Source: an uncultured Candidatus Saccharibacteria bacterium (GTDB lineage: Bacteria; Patescibacteriota; Dojkabacteria; B142; JAFGMG01). From it: 63,916 nucleotides of DNA. Shown piece after piece: positions 34,401-51,114 of this stretch (within the stretch, counting starts at the first letter, position 1; each line of letters opens with the position of its first letter). The stretch is from NCBI GenBank assembly GCA_964444125.1, contig CAYUFB010000003.1:1-63916 (forward strand), written 5' to 3'. The position numbers and the translations under genes were made by a program. Below the pieces are notes generated by a model. The model was not told the DNA's origin and ran no database searches. It worked only from the letters and a program-made list of their open reading frames with translations.

Positions 34401-34964
34401 TTTTTGAGCTTCTTCAGTTTCTTTTGGTTTAGATTTAGGTTTGACAGCCGGTTCATTAGATTGATCCGAAGTCCCTTGTTGATTATCTTTTGGTTCAGTT
34501 GCCGGCTGCGTATCTTCATCAGGATTTTTCGTCACTCTCACATTTTGCTCTGCGGCTTTCTTTCTTTTTAGTTCTGCCTCGATTCTTTCTTTCTCTGCGA
34601 TCTCAGCAGCCAAAGCTTCAGCTTTTGCCTTGTCTTCATCGGGTACAACTGTTGGATCTTCTGGTACATCTTTCTCTAATTTCGAAATTGCTTCATCTAT
34701 TTGGGCTATTCTGGTATTAATTTCATCAAGTCTATCTTGTGCTTTTTTCAATAATTCCTTGCGCTTATCTATCTCTCCTTCGGAATAGGTTTCATTAACT
34801 TGACTTAGTTCTTCTTCTCTTTGTTTTAGCTTCCTTACTGCATCCTTATATTCATATGAATCGAGAATGTTTTTTTTCTGACTTTCTAAACGTGAGAGTG
34901 TAACGCTACTGATAGGTTTTGCTACAAATTTACTTCCTGTGTTTTGAGGATTCGGTGCTGCCAT
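31491..34964 (-). CDS. Large hypothetical protein: coiled coil, Gly-rich hydrophobic helices, degenerate M23-like C-terminal domain
   Basis: ~1157 aa. ATG at 34964 lies 1 nt after the upstream stop (the ORF track starts at TTG 34973). Confidence 0.8.
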   Translation of the reverse strand: MAAPNPQNTGSKFVAKPISSVTLSRLESQKKNILDSYEYKDAVRKLKQREEELSQVNETYSEGEIDKRKELLKKAQDRLDEINTRIAQIDEAISKLEKDVPEDPTVVPDEDKAKAEALAAEIAEKERIEAELKRKKAAEQNVRVTKNPDEDTQPATEPKDNQQGTSDQSNEPAVKPKSKPKETEEAQKEREEKEKKEREANPDFKLKAIRDQRQKELQLREALQRQYESTRDRDMKEQILNQIEPIPQLKTDLAIIETQDRIKKLKREVDALRSQVLNTKVEQNWREAFSNKKAQIVEKEAQIGELERFFRKAINNASEEVRNLASIDVPISLTRSEKLKREVLEEIDTVTGSMQKRAIRRILSETNPLKALDLNDAETLTPAEINQRYKNLLATLYNSDDPNADRAIRTLQYRVDKFIDTINDTDDTQKIRDQASEITALNRERGAEENKKLYRLASDQNWEDFSMSFRTSEIIEGMRKKYYERRKEAVVTLSAKTLLPAAEWTSAGFGKLKTGTRQGARRVYGSRLFAPVRFGVDKWSSSRFGGWVNQKPGQIRTFFSNVDQGFANFITNKVNINVSFGDYEKRKRGFNTRFSLRNRTSTREEYERRKKKSKSRSQTLLALRGLYEVTVGRAVNAIKNAVSFAKDAAYTYTGMKRLSRMKTAMWNGRVGKSFVLARRGYNGLTAGARAVGSGARIGVISGLVGAAIGLGPAAIPVAGAMTLLGTANQLLSDTLASRSPSPFKFIARFQSKYGYLGTKHYLNSVRMEGPAVATFRGPRHWISSASRSLNAGFYGMGIGTLIGTALGNPLLGAAIGFGTAYSGRLILDRVTNNIVAKAMENQWMARLASMPFFESVGLLSSIPWISNQMKFLSNLDIKGLVGEWVNFRKPLHMLANLGTALDSLHNVKMLLSFSGVSTRLLMGTSALGAGLGLIIATQVLGLSLTTGVVAGAMVGGIIGVAIGSAFLGPIGTILFSTIGSTLGAIFGSWIDKLTGQINVGNQLFGLLSFLKSILDFLKSISGKFDPMAAFGLTLSIIFSVGYLSEIKFSEVYNDSSKTTQSHQVTAQKSIENPTQAMVLGIDEKADNSYEKVTINCLENSEYAIYNPNKSTITSIEKINNYYTIETEHNIFINITKPARNLETYGSISKTSLVGTCK

Positions 34965-34965
34965 A

Positions 34966-36159
34966 TTAAACAATCATCAACCCAGGTTTGAGCCCATGAG
35001 TTGCCATAATAATTAAATCTGTCGTGCTTTCTGTTGATAATTTCACTTGATAATATTCTGTGATAGTATCAAGCACATTGCCGATTTCATCAATAGGATT
35101 TACGGTCACTGTGTATTCGTTGTTTACTGCCAGTTTCTCTAGTCTGTCTGCTTCTCGAATTGTTATATAATAAGGATCACGAGGTGTGATCTTACCTTCC
35201 AGGATCATTTTTGATAATTTCTGTAATATGTGACTATAGAAATCTTTTAGTGTCTCAGGCTTTAAATAATCACGTGCATACCTTAATTGTGTGAGGATAT
35301 CTAGAATAAAAATATCAAGAGGGATAATTTCGTCTGCTCTATAAATTAGTAATTCTTCAAGTTTCTTGTCTTTGGCTTGTCTTTTTAGAAAATCTAGAGA
35401 GTTCTTCCTAGCTTCATCTACTGGAATCCCTTTGAATATTTGATCTATGGTAAATAAATACATACTGTCATAAATAACTTGAAGGATCTGAAATCCAATC
35501 TCCTTGATCTCTTTTTCGTGATTGATCGCAAAAAATGCCCAACTAGGAAAATTTATTAGTTCATTATAATAATATCCACCAATTGATTCTAATATGCTAT
35601 ATGTTGCTATCCGAGAAGCTATCAAGTGATACTTGGCTTCGAACTCTTTCGTTGCTTGCATGTCAAAAAAGCCCTTTTCGTCAATTATTAATTCGTATGG
35701 CATATCAATTGTGACTGTTTCTTTGAGTTGTGTTTCACTCTCACGTTCGATTTGAAGCTTCACTTTGTTTTCTTCAGTCATTTCGGGCAGGAAAAATTCC
35801 AGTGAATAAATTGAAAACTCTGGAAGAGATAAATGCCATCTGTATTGTTGCACCCTGTGTTGAGCGTATAGAAAGTTGTATACGACCAAATCAAGATTAT
35901 TCTTTTCAAATTCTAATAGAGCTGGTGGTGGGTAATTGAATACCGGATTTTTGACTGTATCGATATACTCATTCATCAATTTCTTAATCTGTGGATCTTT
36001 TAGAGATTTTTGAATATGTTTTTCAATTTCTTGGACCTTTGGGAGGAAATCTCCATCAAGTGATTCTGGCAACACGAAAACAAAGCCATTAGATTTCAGC
36101 TTTTTGTATAATTGATCTTCAATTTCATTGATTTTTTGATCGATTTTCTCATCATACAT
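34966..36159 (-). CDS. Hypothetical soluble protein (397 aa)
   Basis: Long ORF tightly packed in the operon; no motif recognised. Confidence 0.8.
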   Translation of the reverse strand: MYDEKIDQKINEIEDQLYKKLKSNGFVFVLPESLDGDFLPKVQEIEKHIQKSLKDPQIKKLMNEYIDTVKNPVFNYPPPALLEFEKNNLDLVVYNFLYAQHRVQQYRWHLSLPEFSIYSLEFFLPEMTEENKVKLQIERESETQLKETVTIDMPYELIIDEKGFFDMQATKEFEAKYHLIASRIATYSILESIGGYYYNELINFPSWAFFAINHEKEIKEIGFQILQVIYDSMYLFTIDQIFKGIPVDEARKNSLDFLKRQAKDKKLEELLIYRADEIIPLDIFILDILTQLRYARDYLKPETLKDFYSHILQKLSKMILEGKITPRDPYYITIREADRLEKLAVNNEYTVTVNPIDEIGNVLDTITEYYQVKLSTESTTDLIIMATHGLKPGLMIV

Positions 36160-37931: not shown

Positions 37932-38525
37932 TTAAAGACTTGATAAATTGACTGGGGGTGGGTTGATAGGTTTATCGTTATTGTTGTAGTCAAGAACTTG
38001 TGGCGGATTTTGACTTGTCGCCGTTTCAATCGTTGCTGATTGAGTTTGAGATTCACTGGGCGAAACTGCTGGTTGCTGGGGTTGGGTTTGCACGGACGTA
38101 TTGTCAGTTTTTTGTTTATTCTTTAGATCTTCAAGAACTTCTTTGTTAATTGATAAATCTGCCTGAACGTATTGTAATACGTCTAAAGCATCCTCTTCGT
38201 TTAGTTTATTTAGTGCCTGAGAAATAATTTTTTGATCATAGATATCTAATGCATCTTTTAATTTTTGTTCAAAACTTTTGCGATCTATTTCAGTGATGTT
38301 TTTTTGAATAATTTCGTAGGCAGTAGTAACATCTGTTAACTCTTCTATTTCGGTCATGACTGTAGATTTCTTTTCTTTAGGTATTGCACCATTTCTAAAT
38401 TGCTCTAAAAAAAACTCGTTAATTATTTCTAAACCACCTTCTAAATAATTTTCATAGTATTCCCTAAGCTCAGGCTCGCTTGAAGGTTTAAATAATTTAT
38501 TGATTATGCCAATATTTAAATTCAT
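37932..38525 (-). CDS. Small acidic helical hypothetical protein with Q/P/T-rich tail
   Basis: 197-aa ORF, E/D-rich. Confidence 0.8.
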   Translation of the reverse strand: MNLNIGIINKLFKPSSEPELREYYENYLEGGLEIINEFFLEQFRNGAIPKEKKSTVMTEIEELTDVTTAYEIIQKNITEIDRKSFEQKLKDALDIYDQKIISQALNKLNEEDALDVLQYVQADLSINKEVLEDLKNKQKTDNTSVQTQPQQPAVSPSESQTQSATIETATSQNPPQVLDYNNNDKPINPPPVNLSSL

Positions 38526-38543
38526 TTTATTTTATTGAAATAT

Positions 38544-41500
38544 TTAAGAACTAAAGCCATACATATTTCTAGTTTGAGTAGAGATGCTATATCCTCTTTG
38601 TTTCATATTTTCTATGAGTGCATTCTCTATTTGACCAAGTATACTAATGTTCCGTTCTATCATGCCCATAAAACTTCCATAGTTTAGATTTCTTTCTCCT
38701 CTTCTTATCCCAAAAGATTCAAAAAGAGCTTCGGTCATTGGATCTTTGTCTGCTGGAAGTTCTCCCGTTTGATTATATATATATGCATCATTAAAGAATG
38801 TTAGGATTTTGTCTTTGTTCGTAACTTTTCTTGACAATTCTTTTAGGGACTTTTCTCTACTTCTAATATCTTTATTAAGCGATCTGATGTATTCGTTATT
38901 CAATTTGCGGAATAATAGTAATCCGGATACCCCAAAAATGGCGCCAAGTCTTATACTTCCGATACCAAGAGGTATACCTACGATACCAAGAGACGTACCT
39001 AGTCCAGAACCAATCAGTGCTGAAGTGAAGCCAATCTTTCCTATTAATTTAAGCTTGTTTCCCCACTTCTTGAGCCTTGTTTTTAATAGTTCAAGTCTCA
39101 ATGTGAATCGATCTCTTTCTTGGTCTTCAATTAATTCTTTTAGATCTTCTTTTTGTTGTTGTATTTTCAATGTTTCTAGTAGAGTTTCTCTTGAAGCATG
39201 TCCAAAAAGATCTTTCCTCTCTGCAGATTCTTTGTATTCTTCTGGATAATTTGTTCTTAAGTAATCGTTGATTTCACTATCCTTAAATCCTAGCTCTGCC
39301 AATTTATCTTTAATTTCAAGTAATTCAATGTACCTTGTTGCTGGACTTCCTTCTGTATTGATTTTGCTAATAACCTCTTGAGCAAGCTTGCCCATAAATT
39401 CGACCCTAGGACTTACTGTAGTGTTTTTGGTACTTTCAATATTTGCTAACTGATTAAATAACTCAACAAATTGATTTCGATCAACTGTATCAGTGTTCGG
39501 GGAGTATCCCAATGCTTCGAGTGCCTTTTCTGCTTCTTTCCTTGCTTCGTCTAATTCTAATCTTGTCACTCCTGGGGCACCAAACGATCGATCAGCTTTT
39601 ATAATAGCCTGGTTTATAGTTCTGACCATATCTTCCCTTCTTCTTGAGTTTAATTCTCTTTGTATTTCATTCATTGTAAGTTCACTATTGCCGATTAAGG
39701 CCCACTGTCCACTTTCTGTAAGAGCTGCGTCAATATGTTTCTGGATATCAGCATCTTCAAGTCCTAATTTCCTTGCTTCTCTTATAGCCTTCAATGCTGT
39801 TTCTTTGGCTTTGTCGATATCTTGTGGTGTGGCTATGGCAAGTGCTTGATCCACTGCATTGACCAACATTCTGATTTTTTCTTCTGCATCAGGAAATTCG
39901 GTATCTATCATCTCTCGATATTTACCAATTAGTTCATTTCTTAGTTGTGCCCTTCTTGTTGGGTTCATTTCTGCAAGATCTATATTCATAGATTGTACAT
40001 CTCGTCTGATGAGGCTTTGAGTTTTTTGGTTGAAACTAGTCGGTGTTTCCGTTATTGATAATATTCTTTTTGCATCTTCAAGTTCTTTACGTTGTGCATC
40101 GGTACGCCTTGCTTCACTAATCCTTTCAATTTCCAAAATTTTCCTCTTTGCATCATTAATCGCAGCAGAATCTACTCTTTTTTTCATCAAAGCTTTGGCA
40201 TTATCTTGTTTTTCTTGTCCAAGTTTTTCTAATAGTGTTTCCCATTCTTCTAGATCAATCTCTTCGGATTTCTGTAGTTCTGCTGGTGTAGGTCCATCAT
40301 CATCAAGACTAGGGGCTGGTACATTCTGGCCGCGCTGTCGATCATCAATATTCTTTATTAGTTGGAGTTCATGCAATGCGTTTATGATATCCTCGTCTTC
40401 AAGTTCTGTAAGCATATTTATGAACGTTTGTTGTCTATTTTTGTCCACAAGTGTTGTAAAAAGTGTATTGATATGATCTGTAAGGCTATTAGGGTCCTCA
40501 ATTAGAGTAATAATAGTTTCATAATATGCGTTGTAAACAAGAGTGCCTGCAGTGGCAGGATATGCATCTCTTAGTTTTTTGGCTACTGAACCTATATTTT
40601 CTTTTTTATCTTTTAATTGATTTATTAATATTTGATCTGCTTTGTATCTTGTTGCATGGTTGAAGTCACCAGAACTATTTGCGTTAATAATAAAAGTTGT
40701 GGCAGAATCAAATTTGTCATCAGCGAATAATTCTTCAATATTTCTTAAGGCATTATTGTTAATGATATCTCCATTTTCTTCTAAATAATATCCTTCTAAT
40801 TCAAGTACGATTTGCGCAGAAAATTTTTCGATATCTGTCATATCTTCCGGTAGTCGTTCTAATAATCGCCCATCCTTTTGCCATCTCTTTTTGTGAGCTT
40901 CTGCAGTAATTGCAAAATCTGATATTTCAATATCTGGCGCAACTCGTTTTTTTAGTTCGGTTAGTTTGTTATACTCTGAACTAATGTCGGCAAGTTTTGC
41001 CTCTGTAAATGACGGGATTCCAAATATGTGACTATGTTGTGTTGCTAAATAATTTAAAATTGTGATCTCTGCTTGTGTCGGAGAACTTAAAGCATTTAAT
41101 GTTGCTATTCTGTGTTCATTGCGCCTGCCATCTGTACTCAGGCCGATTTGTATACATGAAAATAATATTCTGTTTTGTAAATGGTCTGATAATCCTGTAA
41201 GAATTGCATCTTTGTCTTTTCTGTTTTTAATTTGTTTTATTACTTCAACTAAAAGAGTAGGCATAGACTCCAACTTATCTTTGTCTGTGGAATGAATTGA
41301 ATCATTTAGAATAATTGCGAGATTCTCTGCTATTTTTTCCGATGAGTCAGCATTATTGAATATTTCTTGAAAATTAATTTCCTGAGGCGCAGAATTTTCT
41401 CCTGGAGTCGCTGTTCCTGCCTCAACTGGTGCCCCACCTGGAGCTGCATCAGGTCCTGGAATAAGAGCTTCGTCTGTCCCTTCAGATTCTGCGTCAGCAG

Positions 41501-41804
41501 CCTCACCAGAAGCTTCCTCAGTTGCTGGAATAGAACCATCGGATACTACAGATGTCACACCTTGATGTTCATCTGGAGCAGGCGCTTCAGCTGGTGCCCC
41601 ACCTGGTGCGGCTGCTGTTAAATCGGGAATCTCTGCCGGTTTAGGAACTATAGTTCTTTTAGCTTTTTGTGCAGATCTAGAAAGAAGTTCGCCAGCTTTC
41701 TCTTCTGTCATTGGTTGGCCAAGAAACTCTGGCTCTGCTTCTGACATTTCTGGCCGTAGTCCTTTTTCTCCCTCGCTATGATCTGGTAGTTTTGGTGTGC
41801 TCAT
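38544..41804 (-). CDS. Large coiled-coil protein (1086 aa) with acidic Pro/Ala-rich N-terminus and C-terminal Gly-rich hydrophobic hairpin
   Basis: APGGAP.EA twice (16-bp DNA repeat at 41426-41441 and 41591-41606); IGKIGFTSALIGSGLG...VSGLLLF; ATGA overlap with the upstream gene. Confidence 0.85.
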   Translation of the reverse strand: MSTPKLPDHSEGEKGLRPEMSEAEPEFLGQPMTEEKAGELLSRSAQKAKRTIVPKPAEIPDLTAAAPGGAPAEAPAPDEHQGVTSVVSDGSIPATEEASGEAADAESEGTDEALIPGPDAAPGGAPVEAGTATPGENSAPQEINFQEIFNNADSSEKIAENLAIILNDSIHSTDKDKLESMPTLLVEVIKQIKNRKDKDAILTGLSDHLQNRILFSCIQIGLSTDGRRNEHRIATLNALSSPTQAEITILNYLATQHSHIFGIPSFTEAKLADISSEYNKLTELKKRVAPDIEISDFAITAEAHKKRWQKDGRLLERLPEDMTDIEKFSAQIVLELEGYYLEENGDIINNNALRNIEELFADDKFDSATTFIINANSSGDFNHATRYKADQILINQLKDKKENIGSVAKKLRDAYPATAGTLVYNAYYETIITLIEDPNSLTDHINTLFTTLVDKNRQQTFINMLTELEDEDIINALHELQLIKNIDDRQRGQNVPAPSLDDDGPTPAELQKSEEIDLEEWETLLEKLGQEKQDNAKALMKKRVDSAAINDAKRKILEIERISEARRTDAQRKELEDAKRILSITETPTSFNQKTQSLIRRDVQSMNIDLAEMNPTRRAQLRNELIGKYREMIDTEFPDAEEKIRMLVNAVDQALAIATPQDIDKAKETALKAIREARKLGLEDADIQKHIDAALTESGQWALIGNSELTMNEIQRELNSRRREDMVRTINQAIIKADRSFGAPGVTRLELDEARKEAEKALEALGYSPNTDTVDRNQFVELFNQLANIESTKNTTVSPRVEFMGKLAQEVISKINTEGSPATRYIELLEIKDKLAELGFKDSEINDYLRTNYPEEYKESAERKDLFGHASRETLLETLKIQQQKEDLKELIEDQERDRFTLRLELLKTRLKKWGNKLKLIGKIGFTSALIGSGLGTSLGIVGIPLGIGSIRLGAIFGVSGLLLFRKLNNEYIRSLNKDIRSREKSLKELSRKVTNKDKILTFFNDAYIYNQTGELPADKDPMTEALFESFGIRRGERNLNYGSFMGMIERNISILGQIENALIENMKQRGYSISTQTRNMYGFSS

Positions 41805-42067
41805 TTCTTGGCTAAATTTTTATTTAAATAATCAATTAATTCTCCATTTTCGGCTAATTCGTCGAACAATAAAACATTCTCCAAAATCTTGCTGTCTGGC
41901 ATTTTGTCTTTTCTAAGGTTTTTCACCATTTCACGCAAAAAACTATTTGGAATCCTAGTACCAGTTTCCATCATTTTTCTTTTTCTATCCTTGTCGGCAA
42001 CGACTTGTTCAGTAGATCCGTCAGCGATATTTTGTAGTATCTGTTGTGCGTTTAGTGACATAAACAA
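41801..42067 (-). CDS. Small hypothetical protein, paralog of 42118-42375
   Basis: Aligns end to end with its neighbour (LQNI..G.T...V...+...KM.E.G.++PN......MV..LR....P...I...+L.FD.LAE..EL++YL). Confidence 0.85.
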   Translation of the reverse strand: MFMSLNAQQILQNIADGSTEQVVADKDRKRKMMETGTRIPNSFLREMVKNLRKDKMPDSKILENVLLFDELAENGELIDYLNKNLAKK

Positions 42068-42117
42068 TAAATTATTTATTATTCATTATGAATACAATTT
42101 ATAAAAAAAGCAAAAAA

Positions 42118-42375
42118 TTATTGCACTTTTTGTTTTTGTTTTGCTAAATACTCCACCAATTCATCTTTTTCGGCAAGTTGGTCGAAAAATAATATCCTGT
42201 CTACAATTTCATTTTCTGGTACGCCTCTGGCTCTAAGCCTTCCTACCATATTTTGCATCACAGCGTTTGGCACTTTTTTGCCATCTTCAACCATTTTGTA
42301 TTGTTTCTCTTTTGGATCCACAATATCGTCTGTGTTGCCGGCTATTATGTTTTGTAGTGTATTGGTTGGTGTCAT
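42118..42375 (-). CDS. Small hypothetical protein (85 aa), paralog of 41801-42067
   Basis: Start placed at MTPTNT; the track's 18-aa extension just translates the heptamer array. Confidence 0.85.
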   Translation of the reverse strand: MTPTNTLQNIIAGNTDDIVDPKEKQYKMVEDGKKVPNAVMQNMVGRLRARGVPENEIVDRILFFDQLAEKDELVEYLAKQKQKVQ

Positions 42376-42381
42376 TTTGAT

Positions 42382-42578
42382 CAGTATACAGTATTCAGTA
42401 TTCAGCTTACAGTATAGAGCATTAAGCATTCAGCATAAAGCATAAAGCATACAGTATTCAGCATACAGTATTCAGTATCTAGTTTTGAGTCTTGAGTAAT
42501 AGCAAGAAAAATTGCTGATATATAATTCAAAGCTCAAGACTCATAACTCATAGCTCATGACTCAATACTCAACACTCA
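42382..42578. repeat. Heptamer tandem-array element, copy 2
   Basis: 17 in-phase NAG(T/C)AT(A/T)-type heptamers (42382-42500), AGCAA-GAAAAA-TTGCT hairpin, ~7.5 inverse CTCA(A/T)NA heptamers (42526-42578). Confidence 0.92.
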
Positions 42579-43013
42579 CTGTTCAACGCTCTCATCCAGT
42601 TCTTCGTATGCTTGGCGAATTTCTTCATTTTGTTCATCCATTACTTTGAGCAATTCTGCTTTTTGTTCATCGTTAAGACTATCTCTAACCTTCTCTATCA
42701 AATCCATTTCAAGATCTCTCATCTCATCTTCAAATCTCTCCCAGAACTCAGTTAAATCAAACTGTACGTTTTTGTCTAACCATCTTTTGTAATCATCAAA
42801 TTTCTCCTTGGTTAGATTATCTGCATTTTCTAAATAATCTCTAATTTGCTCAAGTTGATTATCATCTTCAATTCTGTCGTTTAGATAAAGAACAAAATTT
42901 ATATTGAATTTGTGTTCTATAAGTCTAGCCAATTCTTCTAGAATATGGACGATTACTTCTTCTTTCTCTCCTGCAATTTCCAGTATTTTTTTTATTAGAG
43001 CAAAATTGAACAT
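42576..43013 (-). CDS. Small acidic helical hypothetical protein
   Basis: 145-aa ORF, very E/D-rich. Confidence 0.82.
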   Translation of the reverse strand: MFNFALIKKILEIAGEKEEVIVHILEELARLIEHKFNINFVLYLNDRIEDDNQLEQIRDYLENADNLTKEKFDDYKRWLDKNVQFDLTEFWERFEDEMRDLEMDLIEKVRDSLNDEQKAELLKVMDEQNEEIRQAYEELDESVEQ

Positions 43014-43026
43014 TATTTATATTAAT

Positions 43027-44370
43027 TTAATAATAGCTTGTAGGTTTTTGTTTTTTTATCCGTTCAGCTTTCATTTTGTTCCTAATGCCTTTGACTCTGT
43101 CGTCGACATATCCAAGAGCTTTTTCGTATTGTTGGGCTTCCTTTGTTTTGTTTTCCAACCTTGCAGCTTTTGCCTGATTGGATATCAAGAATTTCTCCTG
43201 TTCTTTGGTATCGTAGACTGCAAGAAGACCTTTTTTGTGCATAAGATCCTGGATACGTCTTGTAATTTTGTGCATACCATATAGAGCACCAAGAATACCA
43301 ACTCCAGGAATTACTGTCTTGTCGAGTTTGCCTGGTGATGGAAAAGTACCGAAGTCGGGTCTTCCTATATATTGAGAATTGGTATTATTTTCATTTTCAT
43401 TTAAAATAGGAGTAGGGAATTGTCCTTTATAAAAAACTGAACCTTCGCCAAAAATACCCGCAAAAGGAGCTCCTACAACTTTGGTCGCACCAATGGCCAA
43501 TTTGTCAGGATTGACCCCAAGTCCTGCCATCTCCATAAGTCTGCCTGTATACCACATAGTCTTTTGAAATAAGCCACCTTCTTTGAAATTCGTTGTATGA
43601 TAATCAAAAAATCCTGTTTCAATTCCTTTGCCCCATCCTACAATTCTTTGTCCAATATTGAGTAGTGCGTTTTTACCTTTTTCTAATATTGGTCCCCCAA
43701 AAGTTTTAAGGGTCTCAAATGCTTCTTTGGGGTTTGTACCTGCCAAAACACTTCCTCCGAAATATACTAATGCTAGAGGACCTAAGATTTTGATTGTGTT
43801 TTTGCCCAGTCTTTTTATATCTTCTAGAACTTTTCTTCTTGCGCCACTTTGAATCTCAATCGCTCTTTGATATTGTACATCTGATACCTTGAATTTGTCT
43901 TTGATACTTTCAATTACTTCTTTTGCAGTCCTTGTTTCAGGTACGGGTGCTTCTTCAGGTTCCTCTGGTCTTCTACCACGTATTACTACGTTGTGATTAA
44001 CTGGTATATCAATGTCAGCAAGATCTCTTGGATCAACTTGTACACGTTCTGTTGGTGCAGGTCGTCTGACAATAAGACCATCTGGTTCGGCTGCTGCTGG
44101 TTGACGATATTCTTGTGCTGCAGGTTCGGTAGGTCTTGTAACTTGTGTAGCTGGCTCTGTTGGAGTGGTTGGTGCAGTTCGTGCTGGGCTTGATAGTATT
44201 GGAGGAGAATAAGAACTATCCGCAGTCCTACTTTGTGGATTGGCAGTATTAGCTGTTGGAAGTTGTGTCGGTTGAGTTGGCCTTGTAGGAGCTGTTATAT
44301 GTATGGGAACCTCTGCAATAGGTCTTGCATCCATACCTCCAGTTGTCTCTCCAGGATTACCTGACATCAC
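43027..44370 (-). CDS. Hypothetical protein with P/T-rich disordered N-terminus and hydrophobic segments
   Basis: 447 aa; APTRPTQPTQ/PTEPA repeats; ILGPLALVYFGGSVLAG and IPGVGILGALYG. Confidence 0.82.
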   Translation of the reverse strand: MMSGNPGETTGGMDARPIAEVPIHITAPTRPTQPTQLPTANTANPQSRTADSSYSPPILSSPARTAPTTPTEPATQVTRPTEPAAQEYRQPAAAEPDGLIVRRPAPTERVQVDPRDLADIDIPVNHNVVIRGRRPEEPEEAPVPETRTAKEVIESIKDKFKVSDVQYQRAIEIQSGARRKVLEDIKRLGKNTIKILGPLALVYFGGSVLAGTNPKEAFETLKTFGGPILEKGKNALLNIGQRIVGWGKGIETGFFDYHTTNFKEGGLFQKTMWYTGRLMEMAGLGVNPDKLAIGATKVVGAPFAGIFGEGSVFYKGQFPTPILNENENNTNSQYIGRPDFGTFPSPGKLDKTVIPGVGILGALYGMHKITRRIQDLMHKKGLLAVYDTKEQEKFLISNQAKAARLENKTKEAQQYEKALGYVDDRVKGIRNKMKAERIKKQKPTSYY

Positions 44371-44425
44371 AAAAGTATATAATATTTTTTCATTCTAGGC
44401 GAAAATAGGTGGCTTCGCAAGGGGA

Positions 44426-44893
44426 TTATTCAAGTACCTGTCTGACCTTGTCTTCTAAATCACGTTTTTTGGCGATTCTTATTATTTCTAGTTTTTCTGG
44501 AATTTCTTTCAATTTCTTCTGGAAATATCCGAGAAGTTGCATGATGCCATCTTCAGGGCCTGTCTCAAGAAATTCAAAGAAAATGTCTTTTTCGTATTCT
44601 TTGACAATTTTGTTAATTTCATCTTCTAAATCTGGGTAAGTTTTCATGTATATTTTGATTTGATCATGAAGTGCATAAAAACCTCTTTTGTTATCTTCCT
44701 TGTTTTTCGCTTCCAATAATGTGTTTAATTCCTTTACGACTTCCGGGTCTTCTTTGACCATAAATTCCAAGGTTTTCGAGTAAGCATATTTTGAAATAAC
44801 TTCGTAATGAGTATAGATAAACGATTCCTTCTCATGTTCTAGAAGCCCAAGACTATCTGCAATTATGTTTAATGATTTTTCATCTAAAATCAT
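44426..44893 (-). CDS. Small acidic helical hypothetical protein
   Basis: 155-aa ORF. Confidence 0.82.
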   Translation of the reverse strand: MILDEKSLNIIADSLGLLEHEKESFIYTHYEVISKYAYSKTLEFMVKEDPEVVKELNTLLEAKNKEDNKRGFYALHDQIKIYMKTYPDLEDEINKIVKEYEKDIFFEFLETGPEDGIMQLLGYFQKKLKEIPEKLEIIRIAKKRDLEDKVRQVLE

Positions 44894-44919
44894 GAAATTA
44901 TTATTAAATTAATTAAATA

Positions 44920-47900
44920 TTATGTTCCATATTTTTTCAATTGTTCTTTCACACCTTCTCTAATTTTGTCCAAAGTTGATATAACTGTATCATGTTCTGG
45001 AAACCAGTCATCAGGTGCGTCCGTTTGAGACAGATCTTCAAGCCAATAATTGATTTCTTCTCCTGTACTATACATTCTCTCAAGGTCGTATTCTGTGGTC
45101 ACACCTCTTTTCATTGCTGCTTCGAATATACTATCTAATGATTTGATTTCTTTGAGCCTGCCTAGAGCCTTCTTCCTTCTTTCTCCCCATTTCTTTTGCT
45201 CGTGTACAAGCCATGGTTTGAATTTGTATCTTCCATAGAGACTCAGAAGAATAGCTGTAAAAGCCATTGGACTACCTGTGTACATGAGAGTCAGAGTTGA
45301 AGCAAGAAGTGCCAAGTTAGTGGCTCTTTCTGAAAATTTTGCCAATCCTTTGAAATGTGCTGTAGCTGTGTATGCAAAACGTTCAAATTGGGCAACTTTT
45401 TTCACTGCTTTTTGCCAGGCATAGAGATAAGTTTGGGCTGTGTTGAACCTTCTTTCTGATGCTCTATAACCACCTTTGATACTATCCATTATCTTATCCA
45501 CTTCCATCTTGGATTTTGGCAGAATAGCTTCTTGCTCTTGTCTGTATGGGTTACCCCAGCTATCGTCAGGCGAAAAGTTAATAAAACTCTCGAAAAACGC
45601 ATCTTCGGGAGCTTTCGTTTTGCCGTCACGCGAAACTGCTCTTAAGACGTGTTCAAATATCCTGCTTGTTTCTTGTCTATTAAATACTTTTGTTTTGTCA
45701 AAAAACTTTTCATATTTTTCTAAATAGTCTGCAACTGTTGACATTTCTCTGCTTCCTTTAGCGCTATCGATAATTGCTTTTACATAGTCTCGAAAATCAT
45801 CTGTTGCATTGCCACTTGCATCAAATACGTTTATTTTGGGTCCACCGGGAATTTGAACCTCTTGTTTGAATTTGATTATTGGCAAGTGTCTATCTATTCC
45901 TGTGATTGGATCTTTGATCTTCATAAATTCCATATCATACCTTCTATCTGGTGGAATACCTTCTTCTAAAGCCTTTCGCATCTGGGCAAAACGGTACTCG
46001 TCAAGAGCCCATTTGATACCATCGGTTCTAAGTCTGACGTTTTCTGAATCATACCCATCATCTTCGTTGGTACCAAACATAGAGACTGCGTCACGCATAC
46101 TGTCTTGAGATTTTAGACGAATAAATCTCAAGTGAGGATTTTCATAATCTCCAACCACTCTGCCCCACAATGCGTTTGTCGTTTCGTCTGATATATCTGC
46201 TTGTAATTTGCCATTAATAATAAGTGGATTTTTATCAACTCCTTTGACAAGCTCAACACCTCTTGGAATCAAATTGCCCCACTCGTCTCGTAAGTTTTCT
46301 CCTGGGGCTATTGAGACTTTTTTGGTTTGGCCTCTCTCCCTGATTTCAAGATGAATAGTTTTTCCGGTGTTGTTTTGAAGCCAGGCCGTACCATTATCGA
46401 TAAGTTGTTCTTCAGCATAATGTATCAAATTGACCATCTCAAAGAATGAATAATGTTTTTTTTCTTTGGCTGCTTCGTTGTGCTCATGACCAAGTGTCCT
46501 AAATGCCATCAAGCCATCACGTCTTCTGAGATAATCTCTGAAGTCCTCTCCAATTTGTCTTTCCCAATAGAACATTCCTTCTCTCATATAGTCTGGCAAA
46601 TCGCTTCTTCTAGCATGTTTTTTGAAAAATTTGGAAACTTCTTGTTGTCTTTTGCCAGGTCCACGTCTTAGAGAACCTAGCATCAAACTTCTAATCAATC
46701 CTTCATTTGGGCTATATCTCTTGCCATCATAGGCGTAGCTATATTTGGACAGATGTCCTGTCCCAAAGAGCTTATCTTTGGCTACATCTTCTAATATGCT
46801 TAATTCCGAGCTACCTATTCGTGTAGTTTCTTTAAGATCATTGTGGTCTATACCAAACTGATAAGTTTGCCCCTTAAATTCATATTTGACTCCGGATAAT
46901 TCATTTAAGTATCTAAGCATTTCTTGTTGATCTATCTGCCCGTCTGATGCTCCAATTTGGACAAACCATTGTGGCCCCATGGAATATAGTTTGTCGTAAA
47001 CGCCCATTGCAAGACTTGTTGGGAGGTTTTCTCGTTCTTCGGCTATATTGTGTGCGGCATTGTATCCTGGAAGATATTCTTTGAGTCTGTGTTCCATCTC
47101 AGGACTTACCCATGCCCAAAATTTTATAGGCTTAGCGCCAAGATCGGCTGATCCAAGATCTTTTTCGGCCCATCTTCTTAATTTTGGATTCATGCTATGT
47201 GCATATCTAGCTGCTATTGCTCTCTTTCTATTATATGAAGCAAGGCCTGGGATCGGGATATATGTTCTATCCATAATACCTCCTACAATTGGTAATCTAC
47301 CTACTGTCCGAAATCCTTGTATTGTACTTAGTGGCCTAAAACCCCACCCTTCATCTGCAAATTCAAGCCTGGTATTGTATGCGGCTTTGCCTGCTTCTCC
47401 ATACCATGTGATTTTGCCACCCATTTGCTGCGTGTCTGTGTATAGTTGCTTTTTATTTAATGGGTTTGTGCTATCGGTGACCCCGAATAAAGAATCCATC
47501 CCAGATGCTGCGTATTTGATATTCGTATTGTCTTTCAAAGCTTCTTCAATTAGGGGTGATTCTCTATCAGAAAATAATTCAGCATTTTGTATATCTCTAC
47601 TTTCGGTTGGCTTGAGATAAGGGTACATTTCTGCAAGTTGTCTCCTTATACTGGCAAGTTTCTCTTCTGGCAATAGACTTGGATCTTGTTGTTCTAGTAG
47701 TGTGCGCAAATTAAATGCTAATTGTGATCTTCTGATACTGTCTTCAAGTAGTTGCTCACGATCTTTCTTAGCAGGTTCACTGCCTTGGTCTTCTGTTTGT
47801 GCAATTTGTTTCGGCTTGAGTATACGCTCTAAATCTTTGATGAGGTAGTATAGTTCTCTCTCTGCGGGGGTAGGATTAGGATGTTTGAGGATGTACAAAT

Positions 47901-50016
47901 CATCAAGTTTTATCTCGCCTTTTTCTAGCACTTCTTCTGTGATTCTTGAAGATAACTCTCTATAGGCTCTATTAAGCCGGGTTCCTTCTGGGGTTATTTT
48001 TTCTGGATCTACATTTGCCAGTTTATAATCCTTATGAAATTCATCTAGTAGATAATCAGTTGTTTCGTGTTTTTGAAGTCTGGTCCCAACATCATGATTT
48101 AAAGTAGGATTATTTGTTAGTACAATAATATTTACTGATGGAGTGATATTTTTACCTCTTGCAACTGTATCGAAATTAGTTCCCTCTATTAGATTCTTGA
48201 AGTTTATCAGACCTGCATTCTCTATAGTAGCTCCCATTCCATTTGCTTTGATATCTTCAATACTATTTTCTTTCACTCCCAAGGCTAAAAGAAGTTGATT
48301 GTATTCTTCTTCACTTCCTGCTATGAGGTGGCTATTTACGACAAGAGATATACCTGTTGGAGAGATCTCAAGATCCACTATACGTTTATTAAATAGATCT
48401 TCAAGATTAAGATCATTATCCCGGAGGTTAAATAGACCTTTGATGTCATTGTTTAAGGCTTGAATTGTTTGTTTTCTTCTTTCTTCTTGCTTATCAATAT
48501 CTCTGTCTTCCGGGTACCCAACTAACTCCCATGCCATTTGATGTTGTGTTCGAATTTGTTTTGCAAGTTCGAGCATATCTTGTATCTCTTTTTTGTACTT
48601 TTTATTTTTCTCTGAATTCTCGGGGTCTAGGTTTGGTTCTGGAACAAAATCATACTCTCCATTTTCGGTAAAAGTGACATCACCAAGGTTGAATTCCTGG
48701 AGTCTTAGGTACAAATCTAGTTCATCGAAATCTTCACTATTTAAAAGCATTATCATAGTCATGAAATCTTCTCTAGCAGCTGTGATCCGCTCTTCTACCG
48801 GGCCAGTTCTTCTCCATTCTTCATAATTAACAAATTCATCAGCAAGTTCTGCCATTTCTCCCTGTTTCTCTAGATCAACCTTTTCTAGCGAAATCTCAAT
48901 TCTAGATAAGATCTTGGGGTCACTGATAAGCTCGAGTAGACGAATTTGGTTTAGACTTAATGGCTGAATATCCTCTGCTGTTATCTTAGTTGTGAGTAAT
49001 GAAGTAAGATTTCTTTCGGATATTAATAACCTCTGTAATTCTTCTAATCGTTCTTTTTCTGTTTTAAGTAATCCTGGTCTAATTGAATCTTTTTCAAGTA
49101 TTTTTGTAATTGTATTCGTCGTTATCACATCTAGACAAGATTGCTTTGACTCTCCTTCTCTCCCTGTTTCTTTTACCATAAAAGGACTCTCTGATAAACT
49201 TCGAAGCTGATCAATTAATAGAGTGTTTCTACGATTTTGAAGAGCAACTAGTTCATTATTTTCCTCTTTCGTCCTATCAGTTTTCTTCTCCAAAGCTCGG
49301 ATTCTTTTTTCAATTTTTTTAAGATCTCTATGGTTTGCTACTCGTTTGGACTTTTCTTGTCTGGCCCTCTCTTTCTTGTCTATTACTCCTTCAGGTTTTG
49401 AAGTTTCTTGTTTCTTTTCCCCCTTTGCGGATTTTTTATTGTCAGCTTCTACAGTTTGTTCTACTTCGTTGATGTCGATCCCTGCACCTTTCATAGCTTC
49501 TTTTGTTTGTGCAAGTACTCCTTTAAATAATTCTCTAAAGGTATTATCATCCATCCCTTGAGGAACTGCATCTGATTGATTACTTAATGCCTGTAAGGTA
49601 TTGTATGCTTGAAGGATCAATTCTCTTTTTGCCTTCTTATCTGATTCATTTTTTAATTCTGCAAAGTTTGTAGCGCGATTGATTTCTCTGAGGGCAAGTT
49701 CTAGTGGGGCGACATTTTCTGCAGGGATCTCTCCTGTGATCTTTTGTCTCTCAAGCATTAATCTTGCCATCTGGATAAATTCAGGGCGAGGTGGTCTTGA
49801 AGCTCGATCAGATGATTTTTCATTTTGTGATTCAGGGCCTCTTCTTAGTTGAGCACGTTCAAGTTCTCTTGCGATATTTTCTTCTGATTGTCTTTTGGCA
49901 ATCTCTGCTATATCACGTCTACGTTGGCTTTCTGCCTGTTTTTTCTTTTCGGGGCTAGTACCTTGTACTTGCCCTTGCCCTTGTCCCCCTAGTTCGTTTG
50001 ATTCAGCTGTAGACAT
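44920..50016 (-). CDS. Giant hypothetical protein (1698 aa), coiled coils and C-terminal hydrophobic hairpin
   Basis: Uninterrupted ORF; no signal peptide; ATNLALLASTLTLMYTGSPMAFTAILLSLYG near the C-terminus. Confidence 0.88.
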   Translation of the reverse strand: MSTAESNELGGQGQGQVQGTSPEKKKQAESQRRRDIAEIAKRQSEENIARELERAQLRRGPESQNEKSSDRASRPPRPEFIQMARLMLERQKITGEIPAENVAPLELALREINRATNFAELKNESDKKAKRELILQAYNTLQALSNQSDAVPQGMDDNTFRELFKGVLAQTKEAMKGAGIDINEVEQTVEADNKKSAKGEKKQETSKPEGVIDKKERARQEKSKRVANHRDLKKIEKRIRALEKKTDRTKEENNELVALQNRRNTLLIDQLRSLSESPFMVKETGREGESKQSCLDVITTNTITKILEKDSIRPGLLKTEKERLEELQRLLISERNLTSLLTTKITAEDIQPLSLNQIRLLELISDPKILSRIEISLEKVDLEKQGEMAELADEFVNYEEWRRTGPVEERITAAREDFMTMIMLLNSEDFDELDLYLRLQEFNLGDVTFTENGEYDFVPEPNLDPENSEKNKKYKKEIQDMLELAKQIRTQHQMAWELVGYPEDRDIDKQEERRKQTIQALNNDIKGLFNLRDNDLNLEDLFNKRIVDLEISPTGISLVVNSHLIAGSEEEYNQLLLALGVKENSIEDIKANGMGATIENAGLINFKNLIEGTNFDTVARGKNITPSVNIIVLTNNPTLNHDVGTRLQKHETTDYLLDEFHKDYKLANVDPEKITPEGTRLNRAYRELSSRITEEVLEKGEIKLDDLYILKHPNPTPAERELYYLIKDLERILKPKQIAQTEDQGSEPAKKDREQLLEDSIRRSQLAFNLRTLLEQQDPSLLPEEKLASIRRQLAEMYPYLKPTESRDIQNAELFSDRESPLIEEALKDNTNIKYAASGMDSLFGVTDSTNPLNKKQLYTDTQQMGGKITWYGEAGKAAYNTRLEFADEGWGFRPLSTIQGFRTVGRLPIVGGIMDRTYIPIPGLASYNRKRAIAARYAHSMNPKLRRWAEKDLGSADLGAKPIKFWAWVSPEMEHRLKEYLPGYNAAHNIAEERENLPTSLAMGVYDKLYSMGPQWFVQIGASDGQIDQQEMLRYLNELSGVKYEFKGQTYQFGIDHNDLKETTRIGSSELSILEDVAKDKLFGTGHLSKYSYAYDGKRYSPNEGLIRSLMLGSLRRGPGKRQQEVSKFFKKHARRSDLPDYMREGMFYWERQIGEDFRDYLRRRDGLMAFRTLGHEHNEAAKEKKHYSFFEMVNLIHYAEEQLIDNGTAWLQNNTGKTIHLEIRERGQTKKVSIAPGENLRDEWGNLIPRGVELVKGVDKNPLIINGKLQADISDETTNALWGRVVGDYENPHLRFIRLKSQDSMRDAVSMFGTNEDDGYDSENVRLRTDGIKWALDEYRFAQMRKALEEGIPPDRRYDMEFMKIKDPITGIDRHLPIIKFKQEVQIPGGPKINVFDASGNATDDFRDYVKAIIDSAKGSREMSTVADYLEKYEKFFDKTKVFNRQETSRIFEHVLRAVSRDGKTKAPEDAFFESFINFSPDDSWGNPYRQEQEAILPKSKMEVDKIMDSIKGGYRASERRFNTAQTYLYAWQKAVKKVAQFERFAYTATAHFKGLAKFSERATNLALLASTLTLMYTGSPMAFTAILLSLYGRYKFKPWLVHEQKKWGERRKKALGRLKEIKSLDSIFEAAMKRGVTTEYDLERMYSTGEEINYWLEDLSQTDAPDDWFPEHDTVISTLDKIREGVKEQLKKYGT

Positions 50017-50067
50017 GAATTAGAAATAATAAATTATTGTTATTATAGTGAATTTTCATCAATACTA

Positions 50068-51114
50068 CTAGCTCGGTATCTTACTTGCTGCAGTTCTTGT
50101 ATTTTCAAGATTGCCAAGTAATCGTTCACTTGCTTGGCCAAGCTCGTTTTTGATTCGTTTAAGGACATTAGGTTTATCATTATCCGGAGCTTCTTTATAC
50201 ATCTTGATAAGTTCTGCTACTTGCGACCTGTACAATTTTTCCATGTTTTCTATTTCCTCTTTCATACTTCCTAAATGTGAATTTACCTCTCTGTATTGTG
50301 GATCTTCTTTGAGTTTGCGGTATATGTCATTATATACTGTGAACATTCCAGAGGCGCCAGCAGAAACGTAAGTCCAAGCTCCTCCTCCGGTACCAAATGC
50401 GATTGCAGAGATTATCGCTAGTTTCATCAAAGCCTTCATGTAGATTGTCGTCTTATCAATAAAATCCTTATCATCTCTAATTTTTAATTCATCTGAATTG
50501 AGAGTAGATTTTATTGATGTTTCTACCTCCCTAAACATTTGTAATACCTGGTCGTCTTTAACTTGTTCTTGCAGGTCTCTTTTTAATTCCCTTAGAGTTT
50601 TGACGTGTTCTAATGATGTCTCCTTAGTATCCTCAGTGTAATTTAACTCTTCTAGCACCCTCTGGGGTAATTTATTTTGTGCGGCTTCGAGAAATTCTTC
50701 CCGTGTCATGTTTTCATACAAAGAAGGCTCCCCCATTTGTACGTCTTCAGGTCTAACGATTTGGCCATCTGACAGAGGTTTATTTGGATTCTGAGCTTCA
50801 TATAACATTCTTAAATATGTATCGTTCGGAGGGAAACCGGTATTAATAGCTTCTCTGAGTTCTAGTTGATCCGGATGGTCAAATGATCTCATCTGGGCAT
50901 TTGCAAGTTGGTCTCCGGCGTTCTCTGCTCGCGGATCGTGAAATTGCTCTTGCTCACCTTTTACTGGTGCAGTAATTAATTGGTCGCTAAGATTTGGAGC
51001 AGTTCCAGTTCCGCTTCTATCACTCCCTTCTCTAGTCCTATCGGTTGCGCTTTCGTGTCCAGGAAATGTCCCTTCTTGAGCGTGTTGTGTTTGTGTTGTG
51101 TACGTACCTGCCAT
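50068..51114 (-). CDS. Hypothetical protein with disordered N-terminus and coiled coil-hydrophobic hairpin-coiled coil
   Basis: 348 aa; LMKLAIISAIAFGTGGGAWTYVSAGASGMFTVY flanked by heptad-like helices. Confidence 0.83.
   Translation of the reverse strand: MAGTYTTQTQHAQEGTFPGHESATDRTREGSDRSGTGTAPNLSDQLITAPVKGEQEQFHDPRAENAGDQLANAQMRSFDHPDQLELREAINTGFPPNDTYLRMLYEAQNPNKPLSDGQIVRPEDVQMGEPSLYENMTREEFLEAAQNKLPQRVLEELNYTEDTKETSLEHVKTLRELKRDLQEQVKDDQVLQMFREVETSIKSTLNSDELKIRDDKDFIDKTTIYMKALMKLAIISAIAFGTGGGAWTYVSAGASGMFTVYNDIYRKLKEDPQYREVNSHLGSMKEEIENMEKLYRSQVAELIKMYKEAPDNDKPNVLKRIKNELGQASERLLGNLENTRTAASKIPS

Follow-up and report, generated by a model that had tools for sequence, protein, structure and literature searches.

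We analysed a 63,916-nucleotide stretch of DNA (hereafter, the window) from contig CAYUFB010000003.1 of an uncultured Candidatus Saccharibacteria bacterium, placed by GTDB among the Dojkabacteria. On its minus strand, three large proteins of 1698, 447 and 1086 residues are each encoded just ahead of a small acidic protein, of 155, 145 and 197 residues, respectively. All six open reading frames (ORFs) have the positions and lengths given in the original prediction, which had been made from the sequence alone and had called the small proteins possible remote paralogs; the intergenic gaps, predicted to be 13-26 bp, measured 26 bp (1698 to 155), 13 bp (447 to 145) and 18 bp (1086 to 197). Our main finding is that the three small proteins probably constitute one superfamily with one fold, in which the 197-residue type is the sequence bridge between the other two. 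The pairing and the paralogy are solid. As for function, our preferred reading, to which we assign a probability of roughly 45%, is that the small proteins are three diverged paralogues, each the dedicated partner of the hairpin protein encoded upstream of it and acting as a holdase or adaptor; the binding, its site and the activity are what we infer.

Relatedness of the small proteins

The 155-, 145- and 197-residue proteins have isoelectric points of 5.0, 4.3 and 4.45 and net charges of -9, -23 and -14, respectively, and no hydrophobic segment was found in any of them. They had been described as helical and E/D-rich with a core of 140-150 residues: the acidity was borne out, the two proteins that were modelled (145 and 155 residues) proved to be all-helical, and the core of the 197-residue protein spans about 140 residues. 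Acidity alone is not distinctive for the small partners, because most proteins encoded at the locus are acidic.

Simple sequence comparison did not connect the three proteins. Pairwise BLASTP among them revealed no similarity (E values of 27, 2.5 and 0.33), and a word-based homologue search returned one relative of the 155-residue protein, at 41% identity, and only self-matches for the other two. Early scans in which two-sequence alignments were run over contigs from metagenomes and genomes gave no matches. For the 145-residue protein, a two-sequence HMMER profile searched against 1.84 billion representatives yielded 20 matches, each a cluster at 50% identity, 17 of them with E values below 1e-10. 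These matches were 82-192 residues long (143-192 in 18 of the 20) and the names attached to the cluster members were either "hypothetical protein" or missing altogether. An alignment of 19 sequences of this family (alignment A3) showed conservation of the N-terminus, MFNFALIxKILE, and of W78, F90, L113 and Q128, with no stretch conserved enough to serve as a search pattern; several members carry low-complexity C-terminal tails, as does the 197-residue protein. The 145 family is the best conserved and most widespread of the three. The 155 family comprises six sequences gathered at related loci (its homologues lie in L001, L007, L009, L018, L020 and L026), and the 197 profile was built from the window protein and a single homologue in L007, whose gene starts 16 bp after a 915-residue ORF (25% identity, E = 5e-13).

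When the three families were compared as profiles with hhalign, all three pairings were colinear and nearly full-length, covering about 120 of 140 residues. The scores were 28.0 for 145 versus 197 (118 columns, residues 2-129 and 3-124, probability 32%), 27.6 for 145 versus 155 (124 columns, residues 12-140 and 13-139, probability 26%) and 30.3 for 155 versus 197 (119 columns, residues 8-130 and 5-126, probability 43%), with the 197 family bridging the other two. Column-shuffled profiles (100 trials for each pairing) scored 11-12 on average, with a standard deviation (SD) of about 2 and maxima of 15.7-20.6, placing the real scores 5-9 SD above the shuffles; reversed profiles scored 11.8-19.6. 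The 145-155 pairing gave nothing when the 155 profile held two sequences, a score of 25.0 with four and 27.6 with six, a rise with added sequences that is expected of true remote homology.

Two further comparisons pointed the same way. Among 148 natural decoys of 145 residues, cut from ORFs of the window, the core of the 197-residue protein took first place when searched with the 145 profile and again with the 155 profile. When hidden Markov models (HMMs) of each family were searched against 192 ORFs from the window and the related loci, the other two families headed the list of non-self matches; with the 197 HMM, seven of the nine members of the other families appeared in the top ten, a result whose nominal p-value is overstated, since family members are not independent. 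At probabilities of 26-43%, the similarity between the profiles would be best described as a statistical excess and not as a formal proof.

The predicted structures agree with this relationship. The AlphaFold2 (AF2) model of the 145-residue protein (predicted local distance difference test, pLDDT, 85.4; predicted template modelling score, pTM, 0.67) has helices at residues 4-13, 18-47, 51-62, 69-82, 87-110 and 115-144; that of the 155-residue protein (pLDDT 83.5, pTM 0.66) has them at 5-14, 19-48, 50-60, 65-85, 87-111 and 114-130, followed by a C-terminal helix of low confidence. The two models share the same six-helix layout, with almost identical helix boundaries. We compared this layout by mapping the helices of one model onto the other through the hhalign alignment: secondary-structure agreement was 0.89, whereas circular shifts gave 0.77 ± 0.03, and only 1 of 145 shifts reached 0.89. 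The earlier suggestion of remote paralogy is thus upheld by the profile alignments above the shuffled, reversed and decoy nulls, by the HMM cross-matches and by the common layout of the two models.

Neither the fold nor the sequences could be assigned to anything known. Foldseek searches of the PDB with the two models gave best E values of 2.5 and 0.45, with template modelling (TM) scores not above 0.38 and an assortment of helical proteins at the top (CpxP, Shroom2, Smac and designed bundles); the BFVD search returned nothing. PDB sequence and profile searches with the cassette proteins were empty, and Pfam, NCBIfam, PHROGs and PADLOC held nothing meaningful for any of them. In particular, the proposed resemblance to DUF5663 found no support: Pfam gave no match at E ≤ 1 to any of the three proteins, nor at E ≤ 0.1 to the 19 sequences searched from the 145 family; smallness is the sole demonstrable likeness between that family and the three proteins. 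Literature searches (on DUF5663, Dojkabacteria, and effectors or chaperones of type IV secretion systems, T4SS, in Patescibacteria) found no description of these genes. The family, with its unmatched fold, is not described in papers or database families; it is limited to a Dojkabacteria-type lineage within the Candidate Phyla Radiation (CPR) and is without a Pfam or PDB match.

Pairs across related loci and the large proteins

Related metagenomic loci were found by exact-protein look-ups and pattern scans. A 447-like gene was followed by a 145-like gene in 11 of 12 evaluable lineages, a 1698-like gene by a 155-like gene in six out of six (that is, wherever the gene upstream of the 155-like one was visible) and a 1086-like gene by a 197-like gene in both lineages that could be evaluated, with gaps of 3-43 bp. 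Co-occurrence in orthologous loci had been proposed as a check on the pairing, and the pairs indeed co-vary in 13 related lineages, with L020 as the one exception.

Partners and clients can also be compared in their rates of change. Between the window and L007, identity is 54% for the adenosyltransferase and 53% for the sigma factor encoded upstream of the cassettes, 50% and 41% for the 558- and 397-residue proteins encoded downstream, and 54% for the 145 family; it is 39% for both the 155 and the 1698 proteins, 32% for the 447, 29% for the 1086 and 25% for the 197 core. The divergence of partner and client is matched in two of the pairs, while the 145 family is much better conserved than its 447-like client.

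The 447/145 module (window 42576-44370) stays whole wherever it has been inverted, relocated or duplicated. With respect to L001, L007, L009 and L018, in which the module and the 155-like gene converge, the module of the window is inverted in place; in L026 it lies upstream of the 1698-like gene, and the tandem arrangement in L022 suggests a duplication of the module. The arrangement seen in the window is backed by three independent assemblies. One breakpoint of the inversion is the junction between the stop codon of the 145-residue protein and the next gene, which is filled by heptamer arrays (CAGCATA x12 and CTCAAGA x6.6). The DNA contigs of run X1 break at this junction, too. The idea that the module is a programmed invertible element was rejected, since no inverted repeats were found flanking it.

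In another set of loci (L014, L019, L023 and, by its right-hand side, L027) the 447/145-type pair stands behind ftsZ, and there the 145-family members are only 24-32% identical to the window protein. This recurrent place of the oldest module suggests that it may serve the division or the envelope of the cell itself. In L019, a stretch about 3.4 kb from the ftsZ-linked pair (L019:7979-14549) encodes a small ORF, an 859-residue Clp-type AAA+ ATPase, a T4SS pilin (PF18895, T4SS_pilin) and several further small ORFs.

The large proteins show no sequence similarity to one another in all-against-all BLASTP, but they have several features in common: an N-terminus that is disordered and abounds in P, E, T and Q; in the C-terminal part, a hairpin of 30-45 residues that is Gly-rich and moderately hydrophobic; and a helical tail of 80-120 residues. 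No signal peptide was found in the large hairpin proteins. In the 447-residue protein, the Gly-rich hydrophobic segments lie at residues 192-212, 290-314 and 353-369, and 447-like proteins from all contexts (341-447 residues) form one BLAST-connected family. The 1698-residue protein has orthologues in L007 (39% identity), L009, L018, L020 and L026, and the 1086-residue protein has one of 915 residues in L007 (29% identity over 507 residues, E = 2e-48).

The charge around the hairpins, measured over the 40 residues before and after each hairpin (for the 447-residue protein, after its last hydrophobic segment), was +7/+7 in the 1698-residue protein, 0/+4 in the 447-residue one (with +10 in its tail) and +4/+7 in the 1086-residue one. 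Each of the three partnered proteins thus has a basic C-terminal flank, and two of them (1698 and 1086) have a basic N-terminal flank as well, despite being otherwise acidic. The unpartnered 348-residue hairpin protein, which is encoded ahead of the 1698 gene and has orthologues in L007 (304 residues) and L009 (328 residues), has flanks of -4/-2.

In the 1698 family, the C-terminal domain of some 830 residues (residues ~867-1698, window 44923-47418; alignment A5) contains the invariant motifs VGDxENPxLRFIxLxSQD, LRTDGIxWA and SWxxPYRxE. The domain had no match in Pfam or PDB, nor did the entire protein in Pfam, NCBIfam, PHROG, PADLOC or PDB; it could be an enzyme or a binding domain of a new kind.

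RNA sequencing (RNA-seq) contigs from a biogas fermenter, 99-100% identical to the locus, fall inside the 197, 447 and 1698 genes and span the 155/447 junction (44359-44689) and the 348/1698 junction (49800-50306). Such matches agree with transcription across the locus, but they might also stem from DNA carried over into the library.

Setting of the locus

The features of the locus, together with the arrangement of its relatives, are collected in Table 1. On the minus strand of window 37932-51114 the order of transcription is 348, 1698, 155, 447, 145, 103, 88, 1086, 197, 558, 397 and 1160 residues. The 1086 and 197 genes are in one frame, with two TAA codons in the sequence between them (TAA-ATA-TTT-CAA-TAA-AAT-AAA, window 38526-38546).

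Table 1. Features of the cassette locus in the window and gene order at related loci. Numbers in gene orders are protein lengths in residues.
Locus	Coordinates	Strand	Feature or gene order	Remarks
Window	50068..51114	-	348-aa hairpin protein	No small partner; hairpin flanks acidic or neutral
Window	44920..50016	-	1698-aa large protein	Disordered N-terminus, ~830-aa conserved C-terminal domain, hairpin ~1562-1595, ~100-aa tail
Window	44426..44893	-	155-aa small acidic six-helix protein (155 family)	Partner of 1698-aa protein
Window	43027..44370	-	447-aa basic membrane protein	P/T-rich disordered N-terminus, Gly-rich hydrophobic segments, basic C-terminal coiled tail
Window	42576..43013	-	145-aa small acidic six-helix protein (145 family)	Partner of 447-aa protein
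Window	42382..42578	n/a	Heptamer-array repeat	Tandem Repeats Finder, period 7, 12 and 6.6 copies
Window	41801..42429	-	Two paralogous ~85-aa proteins before the 1086-aa gene	ORFs 42118-42429 (103 aa) and 41801-42067 (88 aa)
Window	38544..41804	-	1086-aa large acidic protein	Disordered N-terminus, helical body, 45-aa Gly-rich hairpin 920-965, 121-aa tail
Window	37932..38525	-	197-aa small acidic protein (197 family)	~140-aa helical core and Q/P/S/T-rich tail; partner of 1086-aa protein
L007	12970-14748 (module)		304 → 1706 → 157, inverted [437 → 147], 129 → 915 → 197-like → 527 → 394	GTDB genome; same organism as L004
L009/L005 and L018	L009:8780-10432, L018:4501-6351 (modules)		adenosyltransferase, (328), 1834/1839 → 170/202, inverted [394/423 → 143/180]	Then unrelated giants
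L001			Same convergent arrangement as L009/L018	
L026			adenosyltransferase, [352 → 154] → [1724 → 155] → 760 → 89 → 1111+	
L022	2847-5418		[341 → 178] → second 447-like gene	In tandem
L014, L019, L023, L027	L014:7555-10462, L019:1685-4549, L023:188-3115, L027:322-2901		ftsQ/ftsA-ftsZ → [348-383] → [152-184] → convergent sortase, then rpoD	L027 by its right-hand side
L025			447-like C-terminus, then 162-aa gene	
L020/L021	L020:3659-4601		1698-like → 157 → 147 → unrelated large gene	No 447-like gene

The window is low-GC core chromosome (about 35% G+C) that carries genes for AlaRS, ThrRS, MutL, MurB, a Mur ligase, GreA and PFOR. Immediately upstream of the locus are genes for a PduO-type cobalamin adenosyltransferase, a PEGA protein and a sigma factor of the extracytoplasmic function (ECF) type; downstream of the cassettes follow a polytopic membrane protein of 558 residues, a 397-residue protein, a 1160-residue protein that has Gly-rich, hydrophobic helices, and also an Ig-domain surface protein. 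DNA of the locus is present in anaerobic-digester metagenomes. In the organism of L005/L009, a giant of >3000 residues, unlike any protein of the window, replaces the third cassette (103/1086/197) (L008:1-8691; L009:1194-8691).

An origin from a prophage or another mobile element was rejected in view of the conserved core-genome synteny of the locus. The 1160-residue protein (window 31491-34973) gave a weak match to a PHROG tape-measure family (E = 4e-4, residues 845-1067), which runs through its Gly-rich hydrophobic helices; apart from this tape-measure-like match, no phage genes were seen near it.

The two proteins of about 85 residues encoded before the 1086 gene are paralogous to each other (BLASTP, 1e-22) and make up a separate family, outside the superfamily of small partners. 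The second of the two genes overlaps the start of the 1086 gene by 4 bp. The real start of the 103-residue ORF is probably an ATG near 42375 (giving 85 residues), the annotated start being overlapped by the heptamer arrays; JGI gene calls for the two proteins are 85 and 86 residues. The family occurs as a single copy in L007 (129-residue ORF, L007:14903-15292) and in L026 (89 residues, L026:18333-18602). Each time it precedes a 1086-like gene, so that the 1086-type client has small proteins on both sides.

Proposed role and comparison with known systems

The preferred reading can be outlined as follows. A small cytoplasmic family would have diversified by duplication, each copy coming to serve the one hairpin-bearing client encoded before it and being made from the same transcript. 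The small protein would recognise the client's hairpin and juxtamembrane region; the hairpin with its basic flanks is the most likely target because the partners are related but their clients otherwise are not. Acting as a holdase or an adaptor, the partner may keep the late-emerging hairpin soluble, and escort or regulate it, until the client is inserted into the membrane, and it may even stay bound as a subunit. The analogy with secretion chaperones and immunity proteins drawn in the original prediction is retained in its first half only, namely a dedicated, chaperone-like role; immunity fits poorly with related partners of unrelated clients, with conserved client C-termini and with a conserved 145 family.

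Several points weigh against this outline. Every hhalign probability is below 50%, and the statistics of the HMM cross-matches treat related sequences as independent. The evidence for a common fold is the helix layout of two models, those of the 145- and 155-residue proteins; Foldseek shows no likeness of these to any known chaperone. The correlation with basic flanks is drawn from four proteins, and the positive-inside rule alone would yield basic hairpin flanks. The 348-residue protein has a hairpin and no small partner. Finally, in L020/L021 a 145-family gene directly follows a 155-family gene and there is no 447-like gene, the sole exception to the pairing.

Among the alternatives, we consider it unlikely that the small proteins are permanent structural or regulatory subunits of the cell's own membrane scaffolds, perhaps linked to division or to the envelope. 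The 447/145 type would then represent an ancestral tether neighbouring FtsZ together with its soluble subunit, and 1698/155 and 1086/197 would be derived complexes on the cytoplasmic face. This would agree with the gene order around ftsZ, from ftsQ/ftsA through the pair to sortase and rpoD, which is kept in L014, L019 and L023 and partly in L027, with the location of the locus in the core chromosome, with the high conservation of the small partner and with the basic segments beside the hydrophobic stretches, which predict that both termini lie in the producer's cytoplasm. The adjacency to ftsZ is, however, positional only, and within the clade of the window the module lies away from that gene. 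Pfam and PDB searches revealed no similarity to ZapA/B, SepF, DivIVA, EzrA or ZipA, and such a role leaves unexplained why three unrelated clients should need separate paralogues.

Rather less likely still, the pairs may consist of secretion chaperones and effectors: the large proteins would be exported into a host membrane, for example by the T4SS of Patescibacteria, and the small proteins would shield the hairpin and deliver it. Hairpins that are moderately hydrophobic and Gly-rich, in proteins without a signal peptide, would suit such a function, as would acidic small partners adjoining their clients, the polytopic membrane protein, Gly-rich helix protein and Ig-domain surface protein encoded after the locus, and the PF18895 pilin gene about 7 kb from the pair in L019; membrane-domain effectors that require a chaperone are an established concept (PMC7773334, PMC12981334). 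Yet no secretion-system component, and no ATPase, was detected at the locus, and the 558- and 397-residue proteins, their L007 orthologues and the 1160-residue protein had no relevant Pfam match at E ≤ 10 (no VirB6/TrbL). The 145 family matches housekeeping genes in its degree of conservation, its fold is unlike that of any known secretion chaperone, and a pair located behind ftsZ in the core division cluster of at least three, probably five, distant lineages would be unusual for effectors. We regard as improbable the more specific version, by which a new structural class of chaperones is at work, serving hairpin effectors that an ultra-small epibiont exports, through a T4SS or another route, into the membrane of its host bacterium. 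If true, the 1698-, 447- and 1086-residue proteins would be the first such candidates from a Dojkabacteria-type CPR organism, each with a paralogous escort.

It is similarly improbable that the three small proteins have no common origin, being unrelated helical proteins alike in composition and helix lengths, with a cassette pattern due to coincidence. The empty BLASTP comparisons, the low hhalign probabilities and the abundance of acidic helical proteins at the locus would allow for this. It is contradicted by the colinear alignments, well above those of shuffled profiles, by the first rank of the 197 core among natural decoys, by loop positions that coincide in the independent AF2 models under the sequence alignment, and by the independent conservation of the pairs.

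Toxin-immunity pairs, with toxic domains in the large proteins neutralised by the small acidic ones, are highly improbable. A small acidic ORF tightly downstream of a large one, whose domains lack a family match, is what such a pair would look like, but here the three small proteins are homologous and the large ones are not. In the clients, conservation is seen at the C-terminus and variation or disorder at the N-terminus, opposite to the pattern of polymorphic toxins, and Pfam, NCBIfam and PADLOC gave no match to any family of toxins, defence or immunity proteins. Between relatives in which the 145 family keeps 54% identity, its 447-like partner keeps only 32%, and the locus is syntenic with the core genome and not a mobile island. 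A defence system was likewise rejected.

The relationship of the small proteins and the joint movement of each with its client make a defined and testable system out of a block of hypothetical genes, one in which three natural pairs can be compared, cognate against non-cognate. The genomes of CPR bacteria (Patescibacteria) are tiny, yet about 12 kb is given here to three orphan giants with their own copies of a small protein. The repeated position of the oldest module behind ftsZ offers a concrete lead on division or envelope organisation. The distribution of the family is narrow (the 1.84 billion representatives yielded 20 clusters at 50% identity), and the impact would accordingly lie mainly in CPR biology and in the chaperoning of membrane proteins.

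Searches of Pfam, NCBIfam and PDB profiles, and of the PDB with Foldseek, gave no match to known secretion chaperones (type III secretion system, T3SS, classes I, II and III; Eag/DUF1795; IcmS/W; WXG100/Lap-type). Three of these systems nevertheless invite comparison. Class II T3SS chaperones such as SycD, IpgC and PcrH are acidic, all-helical proteins of about 150-170 residues encoded beside hydrophobic translocators, and their clients, like those described here, have no signal peptide and combine a hydrophobic hairpin with helical or coiled regions. They are, however, tetratricopeptide repeat (TPR) proteins, and Foldseek retrieved no such protein from the PDB (best E 0.45-2.5, TM ≤ 0.38); moreover, we know of no T3SS in this lineage and saw none.

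The Eag (DUF1795) chaperones of type VI secretion systems (T6SS) bind prePAAR effectors through their transmembrane domains (PMC7773334, PMC12881460). They share with the present proteins the one-to-one pairing of a small dedicated protein with a large adjacent protein that has membrane segments, as well as the shielding role that we propose. DUF1795 had no match here, though, and Eag proteins bind N-terminal membrane segments in Gram-negative T6SS, whereas the present cassettes combine a six-helix all-alpha fold unmatched in the PDB with a C-terminal hairpin, at a locus devoid of a secretion system and in a CPR bacterium.

IcmS, IcmW and LvgA are small acidic adaptors that hand effectors, some of which have membrane hairpins, to a secretion ATPase (PMC7280309, PMC12981334), and Patescibacteria do have T4SS (PMC12102498). 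No sequence or fold match links the small proteins to these adaptors and no T4SS gene was detected at the locus; furthermore, IcmSW serve many effectors, whereas here one adjacent paralogue goes with each client. The known kind to which the cassettes belong is that of a dedicated small partner encoded beside its client, and what is new is a lineage-restricted family with an unmatched fold.

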